The position numbers and the translations under genes are program-made. The notes below the pieces were generated by a model. The model saw only the letters and a list, made by a program, of their open reading frames with translations. It ran no database searches and was not told where the DNA came from. Below, piece after piece: positions 15,797 to 43,311 of a stretch of 64,000 bases of DNA (its first letter is position 1; every line of letters starts with the position of its first letter). This DNA is from Escherichia phage CJ20. The stretch lies in sequence record MT533174.1; one strand, 5' to 3'.

Positions 15797-15804
15797 TATT
15801 TATA
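15797..15804 (-). promoter_or_regulatory. T4-type late promoter (TATAAATA) upstream of gene 9
   Basis: Plus strand TATTTATA at 15797-15804, 28 nt upstream of the gene 9 ATG. Confidence 0.65.
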
Positions 15805-19954: not shown

Positions 19955-21913
19955 TTATAATGTAATTGGTTCTAAATTAATAGTCGTATAATGTGGACGA
20001 AGGTCATTTTCGAATACGATAAGCGAACCGTCTTTTGTGTAGATGTTGTCCTGGTCTGGACCCGCATACAGTTCGATTGATTGCACTTCAAAACGGTCCG
20101 AAGTCAAACCAATCGCGGCAATGTCCCAGAAGATATAATCAGACCAATAATCGATTTCACCGATTACAAAGTATTGAGTCTGGTCAGCTGGTGCAACCAT
20201 CTTATTAAAGTCATTACCTGTATAAGGTTGAATATTCGCATTAAGCTGAACATCACCTGGACGGAACGGACCAATGACCATTTTACCATCGCCAGAAGAG
20301 TTGCGGTCAGTCGCTACAATACGGACGTTATATGAGGTAATGGTATCGCTTTGGTTTGTTGGAACGAATTCGAATTCGCTTGATTCCACCGACCTATTAG
20401 TATATTGATTATAATATTTAATGCCGGATTCTGGAGTCTTAAAGAAGTTCAAGACCTCGCGAACCATTGTCACCGTTGCAGACGAACCCAAAATACTATG
20501 GTCAGTATTATCCACATAAGTGAGCATTTTCGATTTAGCAAAACTGTGGTTAAACAATTCAACTTCATCAATATAATAGCGGTCAATCTGGTTAATGATT
20601 TGTGCTTGCAACCACTGTTCAGATTCCTGTAATTTATTCAGCGCATAAGACACTTTGATATTGTGTTTAAGGAACAAATAATCAGGAGAAATAACTGATG
20701 GTGTAATTGTCGATACGTTGAACTCACTAAGGTAGTTTTTGATGTCCTCACGCTGCACTGCGGTGAGATACAAGCCCGATTTAGGTTTAACTGATATAAA
20801 CGCATACCCAGGTTTATTTGCGTCCGTAAACGTCTGTACGGCTTGTACGATTGAGCCGAATCTTTCTGATACGAAGGTATCATAATCGGTCCCGGTGACA
20901 GCACGCATCTGCGCTTCACGTTTAACTACAGCCAGTTCACGGATTCGTTCAATATCTTCCGGGTCACCGCCACCATCAGCTCCAACGTAATCTTTATCGT
21001 TATTGTAGTTTTCGGTAATCTTGTCAACAGTGATATAAGTCAAGGAGTCTGCATAGCTGAAATCAACTGCACCATTTGCATCAGCCCCTGATGTGCGAAG
21101 ATATTCGATAACAATTGTCGAATCCTGCACAGGTTTCAATCCACCAATATAGTTGGCTTCCAATACGCCACCGGCAACCGATTTGGTCGATTCCCCTTCA
21201 CCAAAGAAGAATTCAGTATTACCATCAACAGTTTCACGCATATAGAAAATGGTGGATGTTGAGCCAGCATGAACCATTGATTTGTTTGTCCAGTCAGTCC
21301 ACTCGATACCGTTCACAAAAAGCTTAACTTCTTTTCGGTCAATATCCGGGTCACGAATAAGAATAGGTTGTTTCGGGTCATACAAAAGTTCGGTACGAAT
21401 AATGCGGCCTTGTGCAAGGGATACAATCGGCAGATATTGGTTGTTAATGTCTTTTACCGCGATTACATTATCCGTTGTGACAAACATATAAGGGTCAGCT
21501 GATGTATCACGAGCATAAGCCAGGAACTTAGTCCCGCGCGGGATTTCAATATTCGATGGTTGGAGAGCGTGAGAACATGTCAGCATAACCGAAGTCTTTG
21601 CGGCTGAACGTGAAGATGGAAGATAACCATTATCCTGTGCAGCTTGAACAACCGAAGACCTTAGGTTTGCAGTTCCGATAAATGATTCATAAACTGCCGT
21701 ATTAGCAAACTGCTGCATATACAATGTATTATATGCAAGCATATCAATCAGGATATTCATTCGCGAACCTACGAAATCATAATCCTTAAATTCATCCTGG
21801 CTTGATAACCAGTCAATGATGTTCTTTTTAATTTCTTCAAACGTAGCTCCCACAAATACTTTTGGGATAGCGTTAACGGTTCTTGTTAATTGGTAATTCG
21901 TAGGAGTAGCCAT
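19955..21913 (-). CDS. 6: baseplate wedge protein, T4 gp6-like
   Basis: 652-aa ORF (T4 gp6 is 660 aa); synteny; followed by an AAGCCTC-CGAA-GAGGCTT hairpin at 19937-19954. Confidence 0.82.
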   Translation of the reverse strand: MATPTNYQLTRTVNAIPKVFVGATFEEIKKNIIDWLSSQDEFKDYDFVGSRMNILIDMLAYNTLYMQQFANTAVYESFIGTANLRSSVVQAAQDNGYLPSSRSAAKTSVMLTCSHALQPSNIEIPRGTKFLAYARDTSADPYMFVTTDNVIAVKDINNQYLPIVSLAQGRIIRTELLYDPKQPILIRDPDIDRKEVKLFVNGIEWTDWTNKSMVHAGSTSTIFYMRETVDGNTEFFFGEGESTKSVAGGVLEANYIGGLKPVQDSTIVIEYLRTSGADANGAVDFSYADSLTYITVDKITENYNNDKDYVGADGGGDPEDIERIRELAVVKREAQMRAVTGTDYDTFVSERFGSIVQAVQTFTDANKPGYAFISVKPKSGLYLTAVQREDIKNYLSEFNVSTITPSVISPDYLFLKHNIKVSYALNKLQESEQWLQAQIINQIDRYYIDEVELFNHSFAKSKMLTYVDNTDHSILGSSATVTMVREVLNFFKTPESGIKYYNQYTNRSVESSEFEFVPTNQSDTITSYNVRIVATDRNSSGDGKMVIGPFRPGDVQLNANIQPYTGNDFNKMVAPADQTQYFVIGEIDYWSDYIFWDIAAIGLTSDRFEVQSIELYAGPDQDNIYTKDGSLIVFENDLRPHYTTINLEPITL

Positions 21914-21914
21914 T

Positions 21915-23978
21915 TTATTTCCTAGTAGGAGATTCTAAACAAGGTATGCAAATGGAAAGGGATGGAAATGCAATCGTTAAACCGAATATTCCCAGCATCT
22001 TATTAATCCATTGTACCACCTTACTTAATGATAATGTTGATATTTGGTTATACATTGATTTGCACAAGTCTTTCATTGACCTGGAACCATCAGTAAATTC
22101 GTGATATAAAGATTTTGCTTTAGTTACTGAGTTCTCGTATATAACCATGATATCATCTACAGTAGCTCCGAGCATACCGAGAAGTTCTTCCATTTGAGTC
22201 ACAATAGGAAGCTTTTTGAATTCTTCTAAAGCCATATCTAATACATCAGAAACGGAGGTTTGACTTTCGGTAATAGAGTTCTTAATCTGATTATATTTAT
22301 TCTTTAAAAGTTCAAGTGCAGCTTCAGCTTGTGCTAATGCGGCTTCCTTCTGAGCAGTTAGCTCGTCTGTAACTTTTTCGTACATTCCTGAAAGATATTG
22401 TTTAAATTCAATAGCTTGTTTTTGTACTTCTTGCTTTTTGAGCTTAATCTCATTCCACAGATTGAGTGCCTGGGTTTTAAGAGCCTCAATCATTGCATAA
22501 GCTTCGTCTATTTTCTGGTCTACCTTTTCCATAACCATTTGATAAACATCTGATGCTGTGAATCCTGGAAAGTTACCGCTCATTATCATGTCCAGTGGTT
22601 TAACTTGCTTCATCATTTCCTTGACCGCAGTAATAACGCTCCAAACTGGGTTCGGAACTATAGGAGGCATACTCCATATTTGAGCGAGGTCTACACACAG
22701 TTTTGATAATGCAACACCAGCCATAAGCAATTGAGACCAGGCCCAGTCATACAAGTCTGTAATTGCATCAATAAGGTCACGCGAATACATCTTGACGCGT
22801 TCAACCGAATAATCGTATGCCGACCCAATGGCAGAATAAATCGATTGGATGGTTTCTTCTAAATTAAAGTTTTTCCATGCTTCTTTTAATTTCTGTACAC
22901 CATCACCTGAAGTGCAGAGGTCTTCCAGGTCAATAGTCATGCCCATAATAGTAATCGAGGGTAAAAAGCTTTTAAGTAAGTCCCACCCACCGCCAACAAT
23001 ATTCAAGACCTGTGATATGGCATCTTTAAATGCAAGAAAAGCCATTTGCTGAACATATTGACACATAGCAACAGCTGAGTTGCCTAGCTCTTCCATTGCG
23101 ACCGATAGCTTACTATAACCAGAATCGAAGAATTTTTCCCAATCGGTTCCACCAGATGATGGCCATCCAGGGAGCATATCCCAATATAATTTGAATGAAT
23201 TCCTAGATGTATTCCATGAAGCCATAATCGCATTGGTCAATCCGTTGTAAGGGAATTCCGCTGTAAAAGGAACACAGCTTATTGCCCTGGCTCGCCCGGT
23301 TATTTCTGGCGGTAAAGACCCGATGGATACCGGTCCCGGAATCGGAGTTCCTGGGATACTCATATCAACATCTAGATTTAATATCAGTCCAACATAAGTA
23401 CAAGGTTTTGTCTCATAGTACTTCAAATAAGCCCTGCGGGAGTCACCAAGGCCGTTAAAGTTGACATACATATGATAATCAGCCGTAACTGCAATCATCG
23501 TCCTGGGGTCCATTCTGGGGCCTTGTGACGTCCATACACCGCCACAGTTTTCGATGCGATACATATCATATTCAATAGATGTTTTATACAATACAGATTT
23601 TGATAAATCGGCGCCGTACCAATCATTACCGGACAAAAGAGTTGCACCAATCGATTCTACATAATTTTCTAAATCCAATTGCGTAATAAAGAATATTCCG
23701 AGTTTAGCACACCAGATACCTTGACTTGTTCCATCTTCCGGCGGGGGAGGTGCAGGAAAAGTTTCGGACTTATTACCAAATGGATTTTGTGTGTATAAAT
23801 GTGTAGCTAGTGGAATAATCTCGGTATCCCATTCAACGCCATTCCCAGGTTGAATAAAAGCACCTGTTGGGTTATATAATTCCCATTTAACCCGGCGATA
23901 TTCACCGGGTCCTACTGCGTCATCACAGGGACTTGTTACAGTCCCTACCACTTCATCAACTTTATTGTAGTAATTCAT
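21915..23978 (-). CDS. hypothetical 687-aa protein inserted between genes 5 and 6 (baseplate module); C-terminal third predicted coiled coil
   Basis: Long uninterrupted minus-strand ORF; likely start is the ATG at 23976-23978, 1 nt after the gene 5 stop (the ORF track uses an upstream GTG at 24002); ends 1 nt before the gene 6 start. T4 has only small genes (5.1-5.4) here, and I do not recognise this protein. Confidence 0.8.
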   Translation of the reverse strand: MNYYNKVDEVVGTVTSPCDDAVGPGEYRRVKWELYNPTGAFIQPGNGVEWDTEIIPLATHLYTQNPFGNKSETFPAPPPPEDGTSQGIWCAKLGIFFITQLDLENYVESIGATLLSGNDWYGADLSKSVLYKTSIEYDMYRIENCGGVWTSQGPRMDPRTMIAVTADYHMYVNFNGLGDSRRAYLKYYETKPCTYVGLILNLDVDMSIPGTPIPGPVSIGSLPPEITGRARAISCVPFTAEFPYNGLTNAIMASWNTSRNSFKLYWDMLPGWPSSGGTDWEKFFDSGYSKLSVAMEELGNSAVAMCQYVQQMAFLAFKDAISQVLNIVGGGWDLLKSFLPSITIMGMTIDLEDLCTSGDGVQKLKEAWKNFNLEETIQSIYSAIGSAYDYSVERVKMYSRDLIDAITDLYDWAWSQLLMAGVALSKLCVDLAQIWSMPPIVPNPVWSVITAVKEMMKQVKPLDMIMSGNFPGFTASDVYQMVMEKVDQKIDEAYAMIEALKTQALNLWNEIKLKKQEVQKQAIEFKQYLSGMYEKVTDELTAQKEAALAQAEAALELLKNKYNQIKNSITESQTSVSDVLDMALEEFKKLPIVTQMEELLGMLGATVDDIMVIYENSVTKAKSLYHEFTDGSRSMKDLCKSMYNQISTLSLSKVVQWINKMLGIFGLTIAFPSLSICIPCLESPTRK

Positions 23979-23979
23979 A

Positions 23980-25767
23980 TTAACCGACCTGTACGTTGCC
24001 ACCAGATACTTTAGCTAATGAACCGCCATCCATATGCACAGTATTTGATGCGTTTAAATTAATGTTCGTCGCTGCAAAATTTAAATCTTGTTCGACATTT
24101 ACATCCATATTTTGAGCATTGATTGTGGCCTTTTGTTTAACGCTTATATCTGCATTCTGGTTGACATTAACTGTTGTATCTTTTTCAACCGTAATATATG
24201 CTTCTTGTTCAACAGTTATATCAGCAGTACCCATAATAACTATTTTAACATTTCCTTTAACAAGCAGAGTTCCATTACCTTCTACAGTTTTGGTTTCATT
24301 CCCTCTGATATGAATACTTTCGTTTCCATCGGTCTGACGACGAACGTTAGCCATATTATAATAGGTTTCATCACCACCAACGTTGACTTTATTATTACCG
24401 CCAACGTAAGTACTCGAATCGCCCTGGGTCATATAATAACCATCAGCCACTGTCTTCGAAGTCTTACGACCATCTGGCGCAACTTCCTCATAGGAACCGG
24501 TCGGATGAATCAGTCGATAACGTTCTTGACCTGGGGTGTTATCGAATTCCTGTACATGCCCGCCTTCGGTTTGCATTGTCTGCACATAAGGATATTCGCC
24601 CTTGTAACTTGATTCTGGCTCTTTAAATAGAATCCTTGTATCTTCTGGAGTCCACGGGTCGGCTGGGTCAGAATTTGTAGGGGCCACAAAGGTTTGAATC
24701 ATCCTATACGAACGCCCTTTAAATTCTATTTCTTTTGGGGCCATAATACCGTATGATTCCATATTACCTGTAAGGATAATCATTGATACCCTTGATGCAC
24801 GCCCTTTAGTTTGGTTAAACCATACTGAATTACGAGCTTCCTCAAATGCCTTTTTATAATCACCTACTAACATTGCGCTAAGCATTCCACGGAATTTAGT
24901 TAATCCGCCTAATCCCATTTGGAAAGCCATGTTTTCAAGAGCCATTTGTCTCGAACGGTTTTCTTTATTATAAACCGGACCAACAACACTGTGTTTGCCT
25001 ATATCATTTTGAACTTTTTTAAGGTCTTCTTGGAATAACTTAGAAGCCTCGTCCATTGATATTGCACCAGGGTTACCTTTAACTTCACGGCCTATTTGAT
25101 TAGATAATATTTTGTTTATCTGATTCATATCTCTAATAGGTTGTGGTGCAATTAAGTGGCCTATACCTATAGTTGGATATCCTTCGGTGTCCCAATATAC
25201 CTTCAGTCGAAGACCTTCATCACGGTGAAGCATATTTTCAATTGTGAAATTAGGGTTATCATCTGGTTTAACCTGACTCAAATCAAGACCATCAGGGTTA
25301 ATACCAAGGTCAAGGTTTGCATCCTGAATTACGTTCGAAGTTGCATCATAACCGACTTCACCGCCACGGTTAAGCGCCGCCGCATCATTACCAACATAAA
25401 GTGGGTATTGCCCTGTGGGGTCAGAGAAACCTTCGTTAGGATTTGCTTTTTGTCTTGAGGCTGAACCATACGTACCAATAACAAGACCGTTGAGCTTCCA
25501 CTTGTCTAAAAAGTGACCATATACTTGAGTACCTGGGACCATACCAGTCATGGCAGTTTGAATCCCAGAAACTGATGCAGATGATGTTGGCATCAATACA
25601 GACATCCAAGGAAGGTCTTCGGTTCTGATACCTTTAACAGGCCCTTGTGCTTTCTCATATGGATGCATACCCCATACACGAACACGAACACGACCTTGCT
25701 GAAGTGGGTCCATTCGGTCTTCGACAACCCCGACGAACCAACTTACATTATCTGACATGTTAATCAT
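23980..25767 (-). CDS. 5: baseplate hub / cell-puncturing spike with tail lysozyme domain, T4 gp5-like
   Basis: 595-aa ORF; N-terminus NVSWFVGVVEDRMDP...GRVRVRV, lysozyme core LRLKVYWDTEGYPTIGIGHLI and a C-terminal beta-helix-like repeat region (VNVNQNADISVKQKATINAQNMDVNVEQ) as in T4 gp5. Confidence 0.92.
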   Translation of the reverse strand: MINMSDNVSWFVGVVEDRMDPLQQGRVRVRVWGMHPYEKAQGPVKGIRTEDLPWMSVLMPTSSASVSGIQTAMTGMVPGTQVYGHFLDKWKLNGLVIGTYGSASRQKANPNEGFSDPTGQYPLYVGNDAAALNRGGEVGYDATSNVIQDANLDLGINPDGLDLSQVKPDDNPNFTIENMLHRDEGLRLKVYWDTEGYPTIGIGHLIAPQPIRDMNQINKILSNQIGREVKGNPGAISMDEASKLFQEDLKKVQNDIGKHSVVGPVYNKENRSRQMALENMAFQMGLGGLTKFRGMLSAMLVGDYKKAFEEARNSVWFNQTKGRASRVSMIILTGNMESYGIMAPKEIEFKGRSYRMIQTFVAPTNSDPADPWTPEDTRILFKEPESSYKGEYPYVQTMQTEGGHVQEFDNTPGQERYRLIHPTGSYEEVAPDGRKTSKTVADGYYMTQGDSSTYVGGNNKVNVGGDETYYNMANVRRQTDGNESIHIRGNETKTVEGNGTLLVKGNVKIVIMGTADITVEQEAYITVEKDTTVNVNQNADISVKQKATINAQNMDVNVEQDLNFAATNINLNASNTVHMDGGSLAKVSGGNVQVG

Positions 25768-26366
25768 AGAGCCTTCTCCATTTCACGGATAAGCGCAGAA
25801 ATAAATGACTCAATATCTTCTGGGTCAATTATTTTTATTTCGCGTTTGTATTCATTTTTACGAATAGCATCTTCATAGATATCCACTGCAGCCAATGGGC
25901 CTTCGTATTGTGGATATAATTTGTTCTTATCACCTTTATCGTACCAGGTGTATGGATTATCAGGATAAGAAACAAGATTCCAGAATTTTTCACCATCTTC
26001 ATTCACATGATAAAGGACCTGGTTACCACCTATATTCGAATAGCGTTGAATTGATGCCTGATACGATGATTCTTGTGAACATATCCAACCATAATAAGGG
26101 TCATAGATATTATTAAGCATAAGGAGAACCCAATAGAGTTGCGTGTTTCCATAGAGCTGGTATGCAAGTTCTTCAGGTCTCGGAGCTCCGGCGATGTAAT
26201 ATGTTTTTGGTGTATAATTAACCGCAACCTTATCAAAATAGGCACGATAGTTTCTGAAGATGTCAGTCATTGGGATGCTTAAGACATCTTCTTTCGTTAA
26301 TGATGCCGAGTTTTTTCTGATTGTTTTAGCATCATAATCAATTGGGTTAAAAAATGAAAAAAGCAT
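25764..26366 (-). CDS. 53: baseplate wedge protein, T4 gp53-like
   Basis: 200 codons from the ATG at 26364-26366 (MLFSFFNPIDYDAKT..., cf. T4 gp53 MLFTFFDPIEYAAKT) with GGAGG upstream; the ORF-track TTG extension to 26396 is rejected. Confidence 0.88.
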   Translation of the reverse strand: MLFSFFNPIDYDAKTIRKNSASLTKEDVLSIPMTDIFRNYRAYFDKVAVNYTPKTYYIAGAPRPEELAYQLYGNTQLYWVLLMLNNIYDPYYGWICSQESSYQASIQRYSNIGGNQVLYHVNEDGEKFWNLVSYPDNPYTWYDKGDKNKLYPQYEGPLAAVDIYEDAIRKNEYKREIKIIDPEDIESFISALIREMEKAL

Positions 26367-26378
26367 AAAGCCTCCATT

Positions 26379-26386
26379 TATAAATA
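26379..26386 (+). promoter_or_regulatory. T4-type late promoter (TATAAATA) upstream of gene 4, in the divergent 53/4 intergenic region
   Basis: Plus strand TATAAATA at 26379-26386, 29 nt upstream of the gene 4 ATG; AGGAGG RBS at 26405-26410. Confidence 0.65.
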
Positions 26387-26414
26387 AGTATATCAATATT
26401 TATTAGGAGGCTAT

Positions 26415-42819: not shown

Positions 42820-43311
42820 ATGAATATATTCGAAATGTTACGCATAGATGAAGGTTGTAAGTTGGATTTGTATAAAGATACTGAAGGCTATTGGACCATT
42901 GGTATCGGGCAACTGATAACTAAGAACCCATCAAAAGATGTTGCTCGTGCCGAGCTCGACAAGCTCATGGGTCGCGTCTGTAATGGTCGCATAACCCAGC
43001 ACGAAGCTGAAACATTGTTTAACCGTTCGGTCGAAAAAGCTAAAGCCGGAATCTTGAGACACCCTGTCTTAAAACCTGTTTATGATGTGCTAGATGAAGT
43101 TCGTCGTTGTGCACTCATTAATATGGTATTCCAGATGGGTGTTGCTGGTGTTGCTGGTTTTCCTAAGGGTATGCGATTGTTGAAGGCCAAATCGTGGGAA
43201 GCCGCCGCCAAGGAACTGGCCGACTCGAGATGGTATAAAGTCCAGACTCCGAACCGAGCCAAACGAGTTATAGAAACGTTCCGTACCGGAACTTTTAGCG
43301 CATACAAATAA
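42820..43311 (+). CDS. e: endolysin (lysozyme), T4 e-like
   Basis: 163-aa [37 protein letters not shown]... matching T4 lysozyme, with catalytic E11, D20 and T26 positions preserved. Confidence 0.95.

Follow-up and report, generated by a model that had tools for sequence, protein, structure and literature searches.

A putative large spike-tip protein encoded between genes 5 and 6 of Escherichia phage CJ20

Gene X and the late unit that contains it

The stretch of DNA analysed here, referred to below as the window, comprises 64,000 nucleotides (nt) of Escherichia phage CJ20 (record MT533174.1) and shares ~99% identity with Escherichia phage Bp7, a Dhakavirus of the Tevenvirinae (record HQ829472.1). 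Between gene 5, which encodes the central spike, and gene 6 of the baseplate wedge, the window carries a 687-codon open reading frame (ORF) on the minus strand (21915..23978), which we call gene X and whose product, X, we interpret as a putative large spike-tip protein. The protein shares 99.4% identity with EpBp7_0254 of phage Bp7, which is annotated as a ‘hypothetical protein’.

The reading frame of gene X was confirmed in the ORF listing of the window. As listed, it extends over 21915..24002 and would encode 695 amino acids (aa) from a GTG start, while the in-frame ATG at 23978 gives 687 aa. The N-terminal sequence MNYxxIID of the family is kept from the methionine at 23978, all 48 aligned homologues start with MNY or MDY at that position, and the Bp7 homologue is annotated with the same start; ATG 23978 is therefore taken to be the true start. 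A chance ORF can be dismissed because X has 62 homologues at 31–99% identity, with 50 invariant alignment columns.

Gene X is tightly packed between its neighbours. Upstream lies gene 5 (23980..25767, minus strand; 595 aa), whose product has an OB domain, a lysozyme domain and a beta-helix, as supported by Pfam (Gp5_OB at 1.6e-60, lysozyme, and Gp5_C) and PHROG matches. Downstream lies gene 6 (19955..21913, minus strand), which abuts X translationally and matches five gp6 domains in Pfam; gp7 was likewise confirmed as a neighbour. Read directly from the sequence, the gp5/X junction is ...GGT TAA-T-ATG and the X/gp6 junction is ...AGGAAATAA-A-ATG (that is, ...AGGAAA TAA-A-ATG), each with a gap of 1 nt. 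The first gene of the unit is gene 53, another baseplate wedge gene (25764..26396, minus strand; Pfam 1.5e-73), the likely true start of which is ATG 26366, as in Bp7. The minus strand between 26400 and 15805 contains neither an exact match to the T4 late-promoter motif TATAAATA nor a terminator-like site with a clean T-run, and upstream of gene 53 there are near-matches to the late motif only. An intrinsic-terminator-like hairpin with a T-run (15831-15814, minus strand) is found 3′ of gene 8, and the next exact TATAAATA follows it at 15797-15804 on the minus strand. Given that no late promoter or terminator was found inside the unit and that the hairpin follows gene 8, we infer that X lies inside a late unit that runs gp53-5-X-6-7-8.

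These results bear out the original prediction, made from the sequence alone, that a 687-aa ORF with 1-nt gaps on both sides is co-oriented with the late structural operon. They also agree with its statement that T4 has only small genes at this location, as the T4 interval between genes 5 and 6 comprises 5.1, segC, 5.3 and 5.4 only.

The X family, the gp5 tip and gene 5.4

X matches PHROG 5296 (‘unknown function’) with E=0, residues 1-682 aligning with positions 1-684 of the 685-position profile. In a tblastn comparison, it shares 42.9% identity over 99% of its length (E=8e-173) with the product of the phage RB43 coding sequence 107848-109920 (orf205w), which sits directly after the RB43 gp5 homologue. 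By sequence homology, X is thus the copy, in the Bp7/JS98 group, of the family to which RB43 orf205w and gp203 of Klebsiella phage Helios belong. Homologues were detected by tblastn in 215 phage records from several genera, with host labels that are mainly Klebsiella, Escherichia, Enterobacter, Cronobacter, Citrobacter, Proteus and Salmonella. The loci that we retrieved come from Dhakavirus, Bragavirus, Nanhuvirus, Pseudotevenvirus (RB43) and Slopekvirus, as well as from unassigned phages such as POP12. When 1.84 billion representative proteins were searched with a profile, 8 full-length clusters were recovered and otherwise only fragments of the family; the additional weak matches were apolipoprotein-like or tape-measure helices. 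Searches of Pfam, NCBIfam, PADLOC and PDB sequences with X returned coiled-coil noise only. Judged by these searches, the family is real but narrow, and it is without a distant annotated relative.

One objection raised with the original prediction was that X could simply be a structural protein that is widespread and already annotated, at this position, in some known genus of T4-like phages. The family is indeed common, at 215 records, and has been discussed in two papers, but its GenBank label is nearly always still ‘hypothetical protein’, and a few Klebsiella phage records use ‘tail length tape measure protein’ or ‘baseplate hub structural protein’. These scattered labels should be corrected in the databases. 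Labelling of the T4-type gp5.4 is also irregular, with ‘phospholipase’ or ‘PAAR motif of membran proteins’ given in many GenBank records.

A spike-tip role for this family has already been proposed in one preprint and one 2026 paper. In the preprint (PMC12407873; Mattenberger et al., bioRxiv 2025, revised 2026; Leiman and Belin groups), orf205w was proposed to be a unique spike tip of RB43. Phages RB43, RB16 and Lw1 were reported to be without a gene 5.4 orthologue, the 5.1-5.4 locus being filled instead by orf205w, a protein of ~690 aa in which residues 1-220 are an alpha/beta mix and the remainder is helical (PMC12407873). A baseplate map of RB43 at 17.7 Å showed a larger tip with extra density at the end of the spike, which a low-confidence AlphaFold model of orf205w ‘can fit’, and the RB43 gp5 helix was noted to be one strand longer (PMC12407873). 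In the second study (PMC13611949; Viruses 2026), the Slopekvirus homologue, Helios gp203, was modelled with AlphaFold3 in complex with trimeric gp5. In that model, gp203 contacts the final strand of gp5 hydrophobically, carries a loop at its distal tip, and has an intramolecular triple coiled-coil core formed by residues 287-327, 398-440 and 631-670; the authors state that the function of gp203 has ‘not been established experimentally’ (PMC13611949). Neither study mentions Dhakavirus, the gp5-tip/X cassette pattern or the paired cysteines described below. The present analysis extends the family to a genus of Tevenvirinae, finds no PAAR gene genome-wide, shows that the gp5 tip co-varies with X, and contributes a confident structural model, an N-terminal domain without a known fold, and the coupled cysteines. 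A further paper (PMC13119998) deals with Jiaodavirus, a genus in which X was not found.

The absence of gp5.4 was assessed genome-wide for the Bp7-type genome, using the window together with the remainder of the genome taken from Bp7 (X being 99.4% identical in the two); for RB43, RB16 and Lw1 it is as reported (PMC12407873), and for other genera it was assessed in loci of ~10 kb only. As a tblastn query, T4 gp5.4 recovered 1471 phage records, down to ~25% identity in Campylobacter and Salicola phages. No match with E<5 was obtained in the window, in the remaining Bp7 sequence (L005-L007), or at the loci from RB43 and VAC66. A gp5.4 hidden Markov model built from four sequences (T4, Karamvirus, Krischvirus and Aeromonas), for which controls scored ~1e-56, was run against 2928 stop-to-stop ORFs and gave nothing better than E=1.1 in the Bp7-type genome. 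As far as these searches reach, the Bp7-type genome carries no gp5.4/PAAR gene.

X itself is not a divergent PAAR protein. A profile comparison with the gp5.4 and PAAR families, which had been suggested together with the original prediction, yielded no match: no PAAR family (PF05488) was found in X at E<=0.1 in Pfam, alignment with gp5.4 by hhalign reached a probability of 0.03%, and tblastn was also negative. A relationship to T4 gp5.1 was ruled out in the same way (hhalign 0.06%; tblastn E=6).

The gp5 protein of the window is 63% identical to T4 gp5 over T4 residues 4-543, and this identity is unevenly distributed. Regional identities were taken from an alignment of ten gp5 proteins, of which six come from phages with X and four from phages with gp5.4, and in which the tip corresponds to T4 residues 516-575. 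Compared with T4, the window gp5 is 67% identical in the OB and lysozyme domains and 64% in the proximal beta-helix, 25% in the tip and 20% in the last 30 aa; compared with RB43, the corresponding values are 50, 41, 42 and 47%. Krischvirus, a gp5.4 carrier, has identities to RB43 of 59, 71, 31 and 23% and to T4 of 54, 39, 46 and 57% for the same four regions. The proximal helix of the window gp5 contains an 8-residue segment that is common to T4 and Karamvirus AS6 and absent from all other aligned gp5 proteins, including those of the other X carriers. At about residue 535 the sequence turns RB43-like, and residues 536-595 (23983..24162, minus strand) constitute an X-type beta-helix tip that ends in ...DGGSLAKVSGGNVQVG and is the presumed docking platform for X. 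X-type tails end in ...D(S/G)GxL(T/A)K(I/V)(T/S)GGxVQVG and have one extra 8-residue strand compared with the ...SGQYTIDGSRIDIG of gp5.4 carriers, in agreement with the remark on the longer RB43 helix (PMC12407873).

In these alignments, the last ~60 residues of gp5 track the presence of X and not the phylogeny of the rest of the protein. Because the X-type tip class follows X instead of the gp5 body, X and the gp5 tip behave like a module that is exchanged as a whole, and in the window this module is clearly mosaic, with the rest of gp5 being T4-like. In all 12 IMG/VR loci, an X-type gp5 tail ends within ~10 nt of X, and gp5.4 was found in none of them. Even the most divergent X, that of P0062 (31% identity), is preceded by an X-type gp5 tail (...ELAVFTGGTVSVG). 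A comparison of synteny across T4-like genera, another check proposed at the outset, placed X directly after gp5 at every locus examined (the window, Bp7, RB43, VAC66, PM2, LPCS28, POP12 and the 12 IMG/VR loci). The adjacency of X and gp6 is broken at some of the same loci, being interrupted in L020 and L022 and lost in the Nanhuvirus loci L012 and L018, where gp6 is absent downstream.

Several of these loci have rearrangements of their own. In the two Nanhuvirus loci, L012 (Cronobacter phage LPCS28; 1-8067) and L018 (441-6067), X follows gp5 and is itself followed by small opposite-strand genes that replace gp6 and gp7, and ~1.2 kb is inserted between gp53 and gp5. The RB43-like loci L022 (6061-6783) and L020 (2996-3853) have ~700–850 bp of extra sequence between X and gp6, possibly a mobile element, for instance a homing endonuclease gene. 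In L014 (2542-2967), the metagenomic contig of P0062, whose X is 764 aa long, a gp25-like gene (PF04965) lies between X and gp6; in T4 and Bp7, gp25 belongs to the hub cluster and adjoins gp26. Aeromonas phage B614, a gp5.4 carrier (L010; 1050-3794), has gp53-gp5 on the opposite strand from gp5.4-gp6, its PAAR gene thus staying with gp6 and not with gp5, in contrast to the unbroken gp5-X linkage.

Predicted structure and conservation of X

An AlphaFold2 (AF2) model of X was computed with a 48-sequence alignment and has a mean predicted local distance difference test score (pLDDT) of 85.6 and a predicted template modelling score (pTM) of 0.76; low confidence had been reported for the model of RB43 orf205w (PMC12407873). 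In the AF2 model, residues 1-200 (23379..23978, minus strand) form a compact alpha/beta N-domain, the invariant residues of which include C18, R28, W50, K92, WYGAD(120-124), K127, E136, E143, N144 and C193. No known fold was recognised for this domain in fold searches. A Pro/Gly-rich linker (residues 201-293; 23100..23378, minus strand) contains strand 233-241, which carries C235 and which pairs with the C-terminal strand in the full-length model, though it is predicted less confidently when the C-terminal part is omitted. The helical body follows (residues 294-474; 22557..23099, minus strand), with core helices 294-328 and 398-435 and the conserved motifs NIVGGGW, WSMPPxVPNPxW and SGNFPGFT. 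Residues 475-575 (22254..22556, minus strand) are predicted to form a long antiparallel alpha-hairpin with arms 475-529 and 538-575. The remainder, residues 576-687 with the stop codon (21915..22253, minus strand), consists of short helices, the core helix 631-664 and the C-terminal strand 673-682, which is hydrophobic, carries C677 and pairs with strand 233-241 in the model. Segment 662-680 has a transmembrane-like Kyte-Doolittle hydropathy of 1.87 and is a buried strand in the model. The three core helices (294-328, 398-435 and 631-664) correspond to the core of Helios gp203, the architecture of which the AF2 model reproduces.

The original prediction had described the N-terminal half as possibly beta-rich and the C-terminal third as a long coiled coil. 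The model amends both points: residues 1-200 form a compact alpha/beta domain that is not simply beta-rich, and the helical part makes up ~57% of the protein (294-664) instead of a third, arranged not as a single long coiled coil but as an intramolecular three-helix core and the antiparallel hairpin 475-575.

Conservation is distributed along the same lines. Column identity is highest in the core helices (0.66-0.78, with 0.78 for 631-664) and lowest in the hairpin arms (0.39-0.43); at the hairpin apex (523-543) it climbs to 0.61, and Q527, Y528 and M532 are nearly invariant there. Such a pattern agrees with a stalk that is exposed and bears a functional tip, as well as with the tip loop of Helios gp203. 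C18 and C193 are invariant, and C235 and C677 are present in 47 of the 48 sequences, both being lost in P0062 only. This joint loss, a single event, agrees weakly with the predicted pairing of the two strands, be it through a disulfide or a shared metal site. A PAAR-type His3Cys site is absent from X, as the family has no invariant histidine. A dip in GC content at 22000-22499 (0.346 versus ~0.41 in the flanks; AT skew −0.168) overlaps the variable hairpin and the C-terminal helical part.

X as a proposed alternative tip of the central spike

We consider X to be, with a probability of roughly 0.75, a spike-tip protein of the virion; its exact geometry at the tip is less certain. X, most likely as a single copy, would cap the gp5 trimer at the blunt, C-terminal end of its beta-helix and so stand in for the small PAAR protein gp5.4. 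The three-helix core, the N-domain and the C-terminal strand would together form a rigid body seated on the hydrophobic gp5 platform, in which the core would transmit force. The variable hairpin, ~80 Å long and with a conserved apex, would point away from the spike and, on sheath contraction, would lead the phage in contacting and traversing the outer membrane. X would then enter the periplasm with the spike, by analogy with the spike of phage P2, for which periplasmic entry has been shown (PMC12407873). Since X is probably co-transcribed and translationally coupled with gp5, the two proteins may co-assemble locally.

Among the options that the original prediction had listed, an enlarged tip is therefore the one supported, by the homology to RB43 orf205w and its tip density, by the lack of gp5.4, and by the co-variation of X with the gp5 tip. 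Such co-variation would be predicted by physical contact, and its occurrence even in a phage with an otherwise T4-like spike offers independent evolutionary support for a contact between gp5 and X. For the family as a whole, the proposed location draws on the 17.7 Å RB43 map and on predicted complexes (PMC12407873; PMC13611949).

Several points weigh against this assignment. The RB43 map was calculated with C6 symmetry imposed as well as at 17.7 Å, its authors qualify the assignment with ‘possibly’, and co-expression of orf205w with gp5beta failed (PMC12407873); as gp5beta is defined there as the T4 gp5 fragment 484-575, the platform used may have been a non-cognate one. The published complex of gp5 with gp203 is itself a prediction, and in the window's phage, as in any Dhakavirus, X is a predicted virion component. 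We found no virion mass-spectrometry report that lists an X homologue; the virion table of Morganella phage MP1 has no entries between gp141 and gp147, and is uninformative on X because gp5 went undetected there too. The single-copy stoichiometry, though most likely, is a proposal, and a 77-kDa body is not obviously ‘sharp’ as a tip. Finally, the co-variation of the gp5 tip and X could partly reflect linkage within a recombination block, an effect that is not fully separable from that of contact.

An alternative, also listed in the original prediction, that keeps X on gp5 and assigns it a different function is that of a spike-borne cargo or effector, whose main job would come after penetration, much like the effectors linked to PAAR or VgrG in type VI secretion systems. 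The N-domain might act enzymatically on lipopolysaccharide or other envelope components, or the amphipathic helices or the hairpin might refold so as to enter the outer or inner membrane. X is ~8 times larger than gp5.4, its 200-aa N-domain has many invariant polar residues (R28, K92, D124, K127, E136, E143 and N144, along with C18 and C193), more than a cap seems to need, and the hydropathy of segment 662-680 is transmembrane-like. However, no toxin, enzyme or defence-related family was matched in Pfam, NCBIfam, PADLOC or the PDB, the N-domain has no fold relative from which a chemistry could be deduced, and the hydrophobic C-terminus is modelled as a buried strand paired with 233-241 and not as a free helix. 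The helical matches of X are generic and compositional, with prefoldin and designed bundles scoring equally well, and we regard an effector function as rather unlikely. Assignment of X to the ClyA/Hbl/YaxAB family of alpha-pore-forming toxins (as YaxB-like) was rejected, the matches being non-specific.

X could also act without being part of the mature particle, as a chaperone or scaffold that helps the X-type gp5 beta-helix to fold or the hub to assemble. T4 has assembly factors of this kind in gp51 and gp57A. Tight linkage to gp5 and co-variation with its C-terminus would be expected of a dedicated chaperone too, and virion proteomics, as noted above, has yielded no report of an X homologue. 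Yet RB43 virions have extra mass at the tip for which no other gene of the locus accounts (PMC12407873), phages of the gp5.4 type make a very similar beta-helix without such a factor, and X combines a large, well-folded and conserved body with a hairpin that is variable and exposed, a combination typical of structural parts on the outside of the particle. An assembly factor absent from virions is very improbable in our estimation. Still further from our expectation, to the point of being close to negligible, is the tape-measure-like or tube-lumen protein that the original prediction had offered and that a few Klebsiella phage records imply by their labels. This idea draws on weak similarity to tape-measure families in PHROG (E=5e-4 and 6e-3) and on weak profile matches to proteins with a PhageMin_Tail domain. 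The matches include no stretch that is significant alone, and they fall in apolipoprotein-like coiled-coil segments. Bp7 encodes a normal tail-length determinator, the gp29 orthologue EpBp7_0211, near gp27, gp28, gp48 and gp54 (and also gp26 and gp51). We reject the tape-measure reading because this separate gp29 is encoded and the similarities are coiled-coil noise. X does share long amphipathic helices with tape measure proteins such as T4 gp29, a similarity that is only compositional, and it differs from them in its globular alpha/beta domain and in the closed fold that, in the model, turns back on itself.

As a spike tip, X can be compared with three known systems. It resembles RB43 orf205w and Helios gp203 in the slot directly after gp5 (with 43% identity over 99% of the length for RB43), in the lack of a gene 5.4, in the X-type C-terminus of gp5, and in the predicted architecture, which combines an alpha/beta region at the N-terminus with a three-helix core and a distal, loop-bearing hairpin; it differs in being found in a Tevenvirinae phage, a Dhakavirus, with an otherwise T4-like gp5. 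With the PAAR tip of T4, gp5.4 (PDB 4KU0; PF05488), it shares its place in the genome, where the interval between genes 5 and 6 ends, and presumably also its attachment, via a hydrophobic centre, to the flat face in which the gp5 beta-helix terminates, and its general role as the leading end of the puncturing device. The two proteins have no similarity in sequence, profile or fold: X has 687 aa and is mostly alpha-helical, gp5.4 is a small beta cone of 97 aa, the metal site of three histidines and a cysteine is absent from X, and X presumably docks on a different gp5 tip sequence with one extra strand. In phage P1, UpfB on the PAAR protein UpfC (PDB 9VZK) is likewise described as an alpha-helical extension with a distal loop beyond a beta-helical spike (PMC13611949). 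The resemblance to P1 follows that description, and P1 has a tripod of three UpfB copies atop a PAAR protein, whereas a single X polypeptide would replace the PAAR protein altogether.

To our knowledge, almost all contractile injection systems end their spike in a PAAR cone or in a fused, metal-stabilised apex. The X family would represent a 77-kDa, mostly helical alternative tip with a novel N-terminal fold, spread over several enterobacterial T4-like genera that include many candidates for phage therapy against Klebsiella, Enterobacter, Cronobacter and E. coli. A more speculative version of the tip role, which we think improbable, is that X opens after crossing the outer membrane and inserts into a membrane or engages an envelope component, thereby anchoring or forming a conduit from the tail tube to the inner membrane. 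Equally doubtful is the corresponding view of its metastable parts, which would be the three-helix core, the ~80 Å amphipathic hairpin, and the C-terminal strand clamped to 233-241 via C235/C677. If this were true, a T4-like clade would have swapped the PAAR ‘point’ for a deployable device, translocon-like and built on a novel fold.

Two minor observations concern other parts of the window and its closest relative. A 163-aa ORF at 42820-43311 on the plus strand of the window shares 45% identity with the lysozyme domain of T4 gp5 (E=1.6e-32) and presumably encodes a soluble e-type endolysin. In the Bp7 record HQ829472.1, the gp20 portal is annotated in two pieces, gp24 and alt each occur twice, nrdB is in three parts around I-TevIII, and uvsW is split; some of these split or duplicate annotations may be sequencing frameshifts, and others genuine interruptions by introns or homing endonucleases.

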